This document shows, one piece after another, positions 3,001 to 6,000 of a stretch of DNA of 64,000 bases. A program made the position numbers. Every line of letters begins with the position of its first letter. Within the stretch, counting starts at the first letter, position 1. Location: the NCBI RefSeq assembly GCF_056712565.1, contig NZ_CM160072.1. The stretch is one strand, 5' to 3'.

Positions 3001-6000
3001 CAAGGCTGGGTTCTTCTGACGGGCGGCGGCACATGGATGTGCCTTTAAAATAATCATTGGCGATGTGATGTAGATTCGCGTAATATTACCTTACGGGTAA
3101 GAAAGCGTTTTTAATCTTCCCTTCAAAACGCGTCCTGTAGCCAAACATGGGAGGACGAAATGAAAACAAATACAACAAGAAAAGCGATGCCATACATTAT
3201 CCCAGAAGCAGATTTCGACAGAAAACTGAACATGTCTGAGAAGAACACTAGTCACACCGAAAGCTACTTAGCGAAAGGTGTGGTTGATTTCGTTCTTCCG
3301 GGATTCACAACACCTTATGGTTATCGCCTTGTAAAATCTTGTAATGGCGATCATTACAGAATGATTACTACCAGCGATACTCCAGAAACGGTGTATGCGG
3401 TTAAGTTAATCTTTCGGGAAGATATCGTCGAAGCTAAAAGAACATGTACGCAGATCATGGTATGGCGTACGCCTAATGTTATTCATGACCGTGCTGTTCA
3501 TGGTTTGCCTCAGATTTTTTTTCAGTTCTTCCTAGAGCAATATGCGATCGTTGTATCTGATGAGCAACAAACAATCGATGGGAGAAGATTCTGGGAAAGA
3601 ATGATTTCTTGGGCTATAAACACCCCGGGATATAATGTATACGTTTCAGATGGCTCTGAAGAAGATAGACCTCTTAGCTTCATGACATCATGGGATGATT
3701 TCTATAGCCAGTGGGCTGATTTCTGTTGGGGCAGTGATAAAGATGTGCATACCCACAGACTACTGGTTATAAGCAAAGATAAACTGCATTAATAGAAGCC
3801 CGCAGCGCGGGCTTTTTTGTGGACGAAACAAAAGTCAGTGCTACACTCATTGACGCCACATTGAGGTGGCTTATAGATGGAAATTTCACAATGAAAAAAA
3901 CATTTGCTGCACTGTTCGTTTTGTTGTCTCTGGTAGCTTCAACTCAGGCCTTTGCCGGTCGTTGTCAGCACGACAGCGATACTGCTGCTGACGGCTCCCG
4001 CTGCGGTGGGCGTTCTGCGGATTCCCGCCCGGGCGGCGGTGGCATTCGTTAAAAACAAGGCCGCGAAAGCGGCCTGTGACATGTCACGCTACATTGATAT
4101 ATGATTCATAAAGTAGCTTAAAGATTTACTTCCCAGAAAAGAAATTTCTTTTCCTGGATATGTCGCAATAATTGAGCATGACTTATCCCCGTTAGAGGTA
4201 ACAAATCCTGAATAACCTACTTGTTCTTTACCATTTTGTTGCTTGGCTAAAAAGTAGAGGTAGCTTATCTTTTTGCCCTCTGGGTAAAACTCTGCCAAAC
4301 CAGTATCGGTGATTGAATATTTTATTCTCCCGCCTTGAGTAACGTTTTCCATCTCAAGTTTAGCTATGTCTTTTCTGTTGTATTCAGCATTGATTTTCCT
4401 TTCGAAATCAATGTTGTTTTCAAATGAGTAGGAAGCAACAGTCTGAATAGATGGGAACACGTTTATCTGGATGCCCCCACAGTCGGCACAGGTATAAAGG
4501 TATGAATCAGATGGAATCCCCATAAAAGAAAACTGAGTTACCTTAAATTTATCGCTATCTCCAAAGTATTGAAGTTCGCATTTAACATTTTGCCCTGCAA
4601 AAGAAAATGCAGACATCAATATTGAAACAAAAAATATAATTGCCTTCATTATTATTTACCTAGCATGAACTGCGATGGTGGGATCAGAAAGTCGTTCCCC
4701 TGCTCACGCTCAACACGGCGCTGATAACGCTCAAGAGAGCCTGGGTCAAGGGCATCTTGTATCCGGTTCAATATTAAACCATTCATCGCCGTACGAAGCC
4801 AGAACACGTTGAGGAATGGCGTATTGTCAAGTGCCGTGCGATACCAGTCACCCAAATCTGCATCCCCTCTCGTGGTCTGCTGGAGCAGCGTGATAATGCT
4901 GTCAGCGTTCGATGCTGCTGGCCCCATTAGCGACGTAACCGGCCCGGCCCCCATGCGGTTGACCTCACCAAACATGAAGTCACCCAAGATGCCAAGACCG
5001 CCCCCCTGAGATGCGGCTGCGAGAAACGTCTTGGCATCTGCCGGGCGTGGTGTTTGCCCTTTCAGCATGAGTTTTGACTGCATGGAGATATAACCAAACA
5101 TAGTCGCCCAGACAAAGAGGTTTGCAGCACCAAGGAAAGCCCCCTTCCCGTTACGTAGCAGCGCATTCGTCAGCGATCCGGTTTTCGACTCACCAAGCCC
5201 AGCAGGAATATAACCACGCCCGAATACTTCGCGTCCTAGTACGTTCTGCATGAAGCTTGCAGTGAACGATTTGTACTGACCAGCGAATCGTATTGCTTCC
5301 CCAGCCACCGTTCCTGGCACCGTGCCCATCTTCATAAACGCCTGCGTGCGATCGCCAGGCTCTGACATGGCGATATTCAGACGGTCAAGGATGTAGCCGC
5401 GCAACTGCCCTTCCAATTGATCGCGTGCGTCAGCGATAGCGCGCTGCGTTGGTTTGATCCCCTTACTCTCTACATAACCGGCAATCACTTCGTCAGGCAC
5501 GCCGCGGATGCCGCTGGTCGTCATGAACTTACGACCTTCGCTATCGGCCATGTCCATGTTGCGAAAAATTTCCCACTCACGTTCGCCAATACCGTGCAGA
5601 TCCAGCACGCGTCGCAGGTCTTCCGGTAGCCGCGCATGAGACTGGTCAGCATTCTTTGCAAGCCAGTTGGTTATCATCATGGCGTTGCTGTTGCGACCGC
5701 TCTCGGTCCAGAAGTTCATGAGGTTGTACTTAAAGAAAAGCTGCTGCGCGCGACCAAGCTTTCCATTCAGCGTGTCATCACCAGATATGCGCCGGATGAT
5801 TTCCTGCGTCATGGAGTCGGAATAAACTCCGATAGAGGAAAGGATCTCTTTCTGCTCCGCGCTGTTGTAACGCGTGAAGCGGCCTCTCATAGCACCAAGC
5901 AACGCCTGCATAAAATTCTGCCCTTGGTAGCGCATCTCGGTAGCGGCGATAGGCACGTCGTTAAACGATGAGATTACCGCGCCACCAAGTTGGCTCATAC

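Follow-up and report, generated by a model that had tools for sequence, protein, structure and literature searches.

What does a single AT-rich gene do between the tailspike and internal virion genes of a prophage, read against the direction of both? This question was raised by positions 3160 to 3819 of a 64,000-nucleotide stretch of contig NZ_CM160072.1 (NCBI RefSeq assembly GCF_056712565.1), the whole of which is called the window here. The gene, an open reading frame (ORF) of 210 amino acids (aa) referred to as ORF210, belongs to an Epsilon15/TL-2011b-like podovirus prophage of Escherichia coli. To its left lies an endosialidase tailspike gene, which is encoded on the minus strand and continues past the start of the window, and to its right, from position 4652, follow large internal-virion and SLT-transglycosylase genes, also on the minus strand. 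A preliminary description based on the same DNA had called the gene a moron on the opposite strand between virion operon and tailspike, and had suggested an exclusion, abortive-infection or host-fitness factor. The positions could be confirmed. With regard to function, ORF210 is tentatively interpreted here as a repressor-gated mobile accessory gene that would be expressed early and whose product, with a predicted GNAT-like fold, would be directed at a target in the host or in a rival, in takeover or counter-defence.

The GC content of ORF210, 40.8%, is below that of the window (51.1%) and of the virion gene block (52.6%) and corresponds to the 1.5th percentile among 633-nt windows. A GGAGG ribosome binding site (RBS) is situated at 3150-3154 with a spacing of 5 nt to the ATG. 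Both the AT-richness relative to the flanks and the strong Shine-Dalgarno (SD) sequence were thus correctly noted before. In comparisons with homologues of 63-84% aa identity, synonymous sites are saturated and pN ranges from 0.10 to 0.25, with a dN/dS of at most 0.07 wherever computable, which indicates a real gene under purifying selection.

The cargo slot and its probable operator

The region 3000-3900, which has 100% identity with E. coli APEC O18, was used as a query and matched 430 out of 5426 complete E. coli genomes (~8%), most of them in the right flank only. ORF210 is present in 92 of these 430 genomes, about a fifth, while other cargos replace it elsewhere. Nine aligned examples, i.e. 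the window and eight others with unrelated cargos, delimit a common slot. On the left, all nine share the 3' end of a BRO-N antirepressor gene, the hairpin after its stop codon and a TAnnAT hexamer abutting a palindrome (3081-3100). On the right, the homology among cargo variants restarts exactly at the terminator hairpin and extends through the gene of a 56-aa membrane protein, which adjoins every variant and lies outside the cargo. Between the shared flanks, at least six unrelated cargos were encountered across E. coli prophages. The slot can hold ORF210, two kinds of YafO-family toxin pairs, DUF2335 with a 108-aa partner, DUF4760, a 55-aa and 147-aa pair, or a 62-aa and 110-aa pair. All of them fall in PHROGs annotated as unknown function, the YafO-family toxins being the only ones with a named function, and none of the cargos, alternative ones included, gave a match in PADLOC.

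Based on the flank alignment, the RBS and 5' untranslated region (UTR) belong to the cargo, and the terminator and palindrome to the slot. The terminator and the operator-like palindrome about 60 bp upstream, both previously attributed to the gene itself, are present, the former as a strong structure (-16.8 kcal/mol, z = -3.0 against shuffles) with a perfect 8-bp inverted repeat. However, neither is specific for ORF210, since homology among the cargo variants resumes at the terminator and the palindrome precedes every cargo.

The palindrome, TTACC-N5-GGTAA, has ten exact copies in the window, where 0.04 would be expected by shuffling; all ten are inside the prophage. With one mismatch allowed, 17 sites were counted against 1.07 expected. 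Three sites (28902 with one mismatch, 28932 with two and 28950 exact) are located between the divergent genes for a Cro-like protein and a cI-like helix-turn-helix (HTH) repressor, and at the far end of the repressor gene a consensus TTGACA promoter lies between the sites at 29662 and 29724. The site at 2046 overlaps TATATT, the -10 hexamer of the isrK promoter, and upstream of the late operon the site at 23640 follows a TACTAT hexamer. In the slot, the palindrome overlaps the -10 hexamer and the predicted +1 of a candidate promoter, and the abutting TAnnAT hexamer is found not only in the nine slot variants but also in the lambdoid phage LLS. The isolated phage TL-2011b carries the same set of palindromes at equivalent places, including upstream of a YafO cargo, with nine exact copies against a shuffle mean of 0.045.

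The number of copies, together with their OR/OL-like arrangement around the cI and cro genes, makes it most likely that TTACC-N5-GGTAA is the operator of the prophage repressor (and of Cro). No (S24) peptidase domain was found in the repressor and the antirepressor is under IsrK/C4-type control, a combination that would fit antirepressor-mediated induction better than RecA-mediated cleavage. As the operator covers the -10 and +1 of the slot promoter, repression in the lysogen is predicted; ORF210 would probably be silent there and be switched on early, upon infection or derepression. Given the position of this phage-wide operator, its expression in the prophage state, as envisaged in the preliminary description, is considered unlikely.

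A single operator scattered before many operons, accessory ones included, is a feature of phage P1, in which C1 operators are distributed in this way and the antirepressor is controlled by a C4-type RNA (immI c4-icd-ant). The prophage in the window resembles P1 on both counts. It differs in that the operator is a symmetric 15-bp palindrome, whereas the P1 C1 operator is asymmetric, and in that it is an Epsilon15/TL-2011b-type podovirus; the immI region of P1 has no counterpart of ORF210.

The term moron can be retained in part. Like lambda bor and lom and P22 sieA, ORF210 is low in GC, lies on the opposite strand, is flanked by transcription signals and varies among relatives. Its GC content (40.8% against 51%), its presence in a minority of the matching genomes and the unrelated cargos in the eight other examples agree with the composition and variability of a moron, as do its transfer as a unit in phage LLS and the accessory sites of its relatives in other phages (both described below). 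The terminator and palindrome are shared by all cargos of the slot, and in LLS promoter and operator accompany the gene with a different terminator. Classical morons are, moreover, typically expressed from the repressed prophage, whereas the promoter of ORF210 carries the phage operator, and promoter and terminator are fixed parts of a slot accepting different cargos.

That ORF210 could be a structural or housekeeping phage protein is hardly credible. Nothing was found in favour of this, including any homology to such a protein, and outside the 92 genomes the gene is replaced by unrelated ones. The low GC content and opposite strand also argue against it, as does the occurrence of the family at non-homologous positions in unrelated phage morphotypes, under a PHROG (1349) with no structural annotation.

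The slot and its operator also bear on the possibility that ORF210 is a lysogen-expressed defence, abortive-infection or superinfection-exclusion factor directed against other phages. The slot lies between injection-protein genes and antirepressor/tailspike genes, which corresponds to the place of sieA on the P22 map, and it alternatively holds YafO-family toxin pairs and other small two-gene modules. Two relatives are also found in suggestive surroundings, one in an island with HipA, TacA and reverse-transcriptase genes and one, fused to an SRA domain, after a Phd/YefM antitoxin gene. However, an operator over the promoter predicts silence in the lysogen, and neither ORF210 nor the alternative cargos match any known defence or exclusion family in PADLOC. 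Relatives in T5-like and jumbo phages, and the lack of a partner or antitoxin gene in more than 35 loci, likewise speak against a lysogen defence factor, and this explanation is considered rather unlikely.

The family and its genomic contexts

Over its full length (residues 1-210 over profile positions 1-210), ORF210 matches PHROG 1349 with an E-value of 2.5e-113. This profile is labelled unknown function, so that full-length membership gives no mechanism; distant relatives of ORF210 match it as well. Sequence searches of Pfam, NCBIfam, PADLOC (E <= 1) and PDB returned no match, in agreement with the earlier statement that no domain is recognisable. Close relatives (n = 63, 47-99% identity) were found in Enterobacterales prophages, and a profile search of 1.84 billion cluster representatives yielded 918 family members at E <= 1e-3, counted as clusters at 50% identity and nearly all of ~200 aa. 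A word-indexed search with the broad profile gave no named or Pfam-annotated relative, and a literature search with the RefSeq accession and the PHROG identifier found nothing.

The family is distributed over a Serratia siphophage and P1-like, lambdoid, T5-like and jumbo phages. Its genes stand as single units, usually after a gap of 140-750 nt. In 35 loci, no partner gene is common across lineages, neighbours being conserved within lineages only. In Serratia siphophages, the gene is surrounded by tail genes and has P22-type ant and arc as neighbours, and in P1-like Citrobacter elements it is located between baseplate genes and sit. On a distant contig of a T5-like (virulent) phage, it lies beside the genes for thymidylate synthase and dihydrofolate reductase. 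The presence of relatives in T5-like virulent phages and in jumbo phages fits a role in the lytic cycle better than lysogenic conversion.

In phage LLS, the homologue of ORF210 follows the Rz/Rz1 lysis genes. This phage has a different immunity region and contains only one exact palindrome in 42.9 kb, situated 87 nt upstream of the homologue and abutting a TACTAT hexamer, while the terminator behind the homologue differs from that of ORF210. Since promoter, operator, UTR and gene are found together, they have moved as one unit, which fits a moron in structure, not in regulation.

Some members of the family are duplicated or fused. Tandem PHROG 1349 paralogues with 30% identity occur in loci L015 (851-2148) and L016 (4186-5480). 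In L017 (5823-7080), a 359-aa fusion joins SRA_ScoMcrA, a reader of modified DNA, to a PHROG 1349 domain and overlaps an upstream Phd/YefM antitoxin gene; this context is known from one metagenomic contig of 1.27x coverage. In L084 (701-6219), a member with a C-terminal DUF5397 extension has the gene of a HipA kinase toxin on one side and a TacA antitoxin pair on the other, and a reverse-transcriptase gene is adjacent; this looks like a defence or toxin-antitoxin island of a bacterial genome.

The toxin position of the SRA-fused member after Phd/YefM would be in favour of ORF210 being an orphan GNAT toxin of the TacT/AtaT type, modifying aminoacyl-tRNA or some other component of translation and either used for host shut-off or restrained post-transcriptionally. 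A second point in its favour is a conserved block in the 5' UTR that is complementary to the RBS. In the predicted fold of 3020-3165, a stem covers part of GGAGG, and relatives from other phages keep an anti-SD-like ACTCC/GTCC block 9-12 nt before their GGAGG. The conserved block, which reads CGTCCT or, in distant relatives, ACTCC, is situated at roughly -30 to -5 relative to the ATG (L006, L011, L044, L047, L049, L057, L062 and others), with apparent compensatory changes (TTGTCC with GGACAA in L062). However, the pairing probability of the SD did not exceed that of controls with a shuffled upstream part, and the fusion context is the single low-coverage contig mentioned above. Unlike in GNAT toxin-antitoxin systems of the TacAT, AtaRT and KacAT type, with their adjacent gene for a small RHH or DUF1778 antitoxin, no small partner or antitoxin-like ORF adjoins ORF210 in the window, and none is conserved across more than 35 loci of its relatives. 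The hhalign comparison with a TacT-like protein was also null (0.1% probability). An orphan toxin is therefore improbable.

The neighbours of the family gene were also considered with respect to a non-enzymatic accessory of the immunity circuit (immI type) that would modulate the antirepressor or the repressor. In the window, the BRO-N gene adjoins ORF210; P22-type Ant and Arc are encoded beside the family gene in Serratia phages and in L044, and KilA-N or Rha near it in L012, L016, L006 and L009. However, the gene lacks such a neighbour where it follows the LLS lysis genes, where it lies among P1-like baseplate genes and in the T5-like nucleotide-metabolism block, and the same E. coli slot holds unrelated cargos. 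For this last reason, adjacency to antirepressors probably reflects a common insertion hot-spot, and a role in the immunity circuit is highly improbable.

Predicted fold and proposed mode of action

The AlphaFold model of ORF210 is confident (pLDDT 81.7, pTM 0.78). A Foldseek search of viral models returned uncharacterised relatives, one of them encoded by a jumbo phage of Agrobacterium, and after these GNAT-annotated proteins at E-values from 6.6e-4 to 1e-2. The same pattern was obtained with AFDB50, in which GNAT proteins appeared at E ~0.02. In total, three concordant fold searches returned almost only GNAT enzymes, at modest scores. The modelled fold is mixed alpha/beta, and its C-terminal strand-helix-strand-helix-strand unit resembles the cofactor-binding half of GNAT proteins. 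Within this unit, conserved loop residues occur in the order SDxxQTxxGxRFW, GY and VYxxD. The conserved motifs of ORF210 are TQ(I/V)xVWR (97-103), AVxGLP (112-117), SDxxQTxxGxRFW (133-145), VYxxD (160-164) and WG (190-191), and the positions conserved throughout the family include N29, Y79, W102, D134 and W145 together with the SDxxQTxxGxRFW block. ORF210 is thus predicted to adopt a GNAT-like fold (acyl-CoA N-acyltransferase superfamily).

In the proposed mechanism, the slot of this K1-specific Epsilon15/TL-2011b-like prophage would work as a cassette made up of a weak promoter, an operator over its -10 and +1, an exchangeable cargo and a shared terminator. The HTH repressor very probably binds TTACC-N5-GGTAA and would keep the slot, the isrK-antirepressor operon and the early operons off in the lysogen. 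The slot would become active as soon as the phage infects a cell or the repressor is inactivated, and the ORF210 product would presumably serve takeover or counter-defence by acting, early in lytic development, on a target of the host or of a rival. This action could consist of acyl transfer or of binding an acyl-CoA-like ligand.

Several results weigh against this proposal. At the sequence level, no Pfam GNAT family was matched by ORF210 or by any of 106 family members (E <= 0.1), the scan of these members giving one DUF5397 tail and chance-level matches only. The hhalign comparison with a canonical phage GNAT reached a probability of 2%, the homologue search for a deeper GNAT alignment having given two sequences only. 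The coenzyme A (CoA) loop of motif A, Q/RxxGxG/A, is absent on inspection of the close and broad family alignments, and the candidate loops AVxGLP (112-117) and QTxxGxR (137-143) do not fit it. As the likeness is undetectable at the sequence level and the CoA loop is absent, ORF210 is described as having a GNAT-like fold only and is not filed as a GNAT member. With respect to regulation, both the protein that would bind the operator and the repression are deduced from the position of the sites. The slot promoter is weak by consensus: it was read off the sequence, and its 8/12 consensus positions are below the 9/12 threshold of the promoter scan. Read-through from the antirepressor operon (2097-3019) into the slot is possible and could drive ORF210 too. 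Finally, the SRA fusion behind Phd/YefM and the HipA/TacA/reverse-transcriptase context, single cases each, suggest a toxin or defence function, and the alternative slot cargos include YafO-family toxins.

Other candidate relationships were rejected. A T4 Mrh-like domain (PF24070) was matched weakly in the fused relative P0140 only (E = 0.17), and T4 Mrh and ModA.3 scored at most 0.5 bits against the ORF210 family hidden Markov model. Mom of phage Mu, a phage GNAT under translational control, shows no sequence relation to ORF210. The label DUF4123 on the top AFDB match was reproduced by no Pfam scan and was ignored.

Phage GNAT proteins are known as early or conflict effectors, AcrVA5 being one example. 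Mom modifies DNA using glycyl-tRNA (PMC13219725), and Rac of the phiKMV group is reported to inactivate the host RNA polymerase (PMC7552054). ORF210 differs from the Pfam GNAT families, the canonical phage GNAT and Mom in lacking profile similarity to any of them. With a modelled fold that resembles GNAT enzymes and without the CoA motif, the family is best regarded as a divergent GNAT-like variant and not as something categorically new.

Surroundings of the slot and significance

The features of the locus and the palindrome sites are listed in Table 1.

Table 1. Features in and around the slot and operator-like sites, in window positions.
Feature	Position	Strand	Details
isrK small RNA	2097-2173	+	Rfam above gathering score, 74 bits
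C4-type antisense RNA element	2192-2278	+	Rfam, 79.5 bits
BRO-N (AnrP-like) antirepressor gene	2324 (annotated start)-3019 (stop)	+	PHROG anti-repressor matches; RefSeq annotation, identical APEC O18 stretch
Hairpin with T-run	3028-3046 (hairpin 3028-3043)	+	GGCACA-TGGA-TGTGCC + TTT, directly after BRO-N stop
Candidate sigma-70 promoter	3057-3086	+	TTGGCG, 18 nt, TAATAT; 8/12 consensus positions
Putative operator palindrome	3086-3100	.	TTACC-N5-GGTAA (TTACCTTACGGGTAA); 60-74 nt upstream of ATG; upstream of every cargo type
5' UTR stem	3131-3157	+	CGTCCT (3131-3136) can pair with AGGACG (3152-3157)
ORF210 coding sequence	3160-3792	+	ATG start, TAA stop; 210-aa PHROG 1349 protein, GNAT-like predicted fold
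Intrinsic terminator	3796-3819	+	AAGCCCGC-AGC-GCGGGCTT + T-run; GC-rich stem of 8-10 bp, 3-nt loop
Small protein gene	3882-4052	+	56 aa, Gly/Arg-rich, signal/membrane-anchor sequence; phrog_14503 'membrane associated protein'
Cro-like gene	28635-28865	-	
Candidate prophage repressor gene (cI-like, HTH)	29020-29604	+	194 aa; two HTH-like regions
Exact palindrome sites	1666, 2046, 3086, 20481, 23640, 26557, 26619, 28950, 29662, 29724		
Palindrome sites with one mismatch	23622, 28565, 28902, 34746		

Upstream of the slot, the BRO-N antirepressor gene is preceded by the isrK and C4-type elements and also by the Rfam c4-a1b1 target element (2084-2278 region). The isrK-antirepressor arrangement matches the logic of the Gifsy-1 isrK-orf45-anrP-isrJ operon (PMC4825925), with an antirepressor under C4/IsrK-type RNA control; the Gifsy-1 locus differs in having no counterpart of ORF210. 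From 2174, an ORF continues in frame into the antirepressor sequence (281 aa), and a similar orf45-anrP fusion was reported for Shigella dysenteriae in the IsrK paper (PMC4825925). In the slot variant of E. coli E272 (L003), an annotated TacA-family antitoxin gene (2126-2410) overlaps the start of BRO-N and occupies the place that the isrK/C4 leader takes in the window. Further upstream, 1757-2014 on the plus strand, with a palindrome at 1666, encodes a free-standing 85-aa phrog_450 protein. It shares homology with the C-terminal domain of the BRO-N protein, in which residues 198-279 match phrog_450 as well, and might affect the antirepressor as a decoy or modulator.

The hairpin behind the BRO-N stop codon (3028-3043) is kept in all nine slot variants and forms a stem in the RNA fold; it may act as a weak terminator or as a processing site between the antirepressor operon and the slot. 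On the other side of the slot, the 56-aa gene is followed by a GC-rich hairpin (4058-4075), for which the terminator scan called the minus strand only. A second accessory gene, with a GC content (35.7%) lower than that of ORF210, is located at 4089-4649 on the minus strand and encodes a 186-aa protein with a signal-like N-terminus (phrog_11983, unknown function). In related prophages, its position is taken by different genes of 98, 126 or 283 aa.

A further-reaching proposal, although distinctly unlikely, is that PHROG 1349 represents a new clade of GNAT-fold enzymes without the CoA loop, which would use another acyl donor, e.g. aminoacyl-tRNA, and, within minutes of infection, would modify a host defence protein, the machinery of transcription or translation, or nucleic acid. 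Mom, Fem and the L/F-transferases, which take aminoacyl-tRNA as donor, serve as the model for this. If true, genes for early counter-defence or takeover would generally be exchanged at this repressor-gated slot, and the other cargos, at least five, would become candidates too.

Uncharacterised morons are common, which limits the surprise of finding another one, but the predicted gating of the slot and the size of the family make ORF210 a reasonable experimental target. PHROG 1349 comprises 918 clusters from temperate, P1-like, T5-like and jumbo phages and is catalogued, yet no member of it has been studied. The slot is a compact place in which to look for new genes of phage-host conflict, and its operator offers a simple test of when the cargo is expressed. 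A predicted GNAT-like fold that lacks the CoA motif, together with the control expected of an early gene, makes the family a specific lead in the search for new activities in host takeover or counter-defence.

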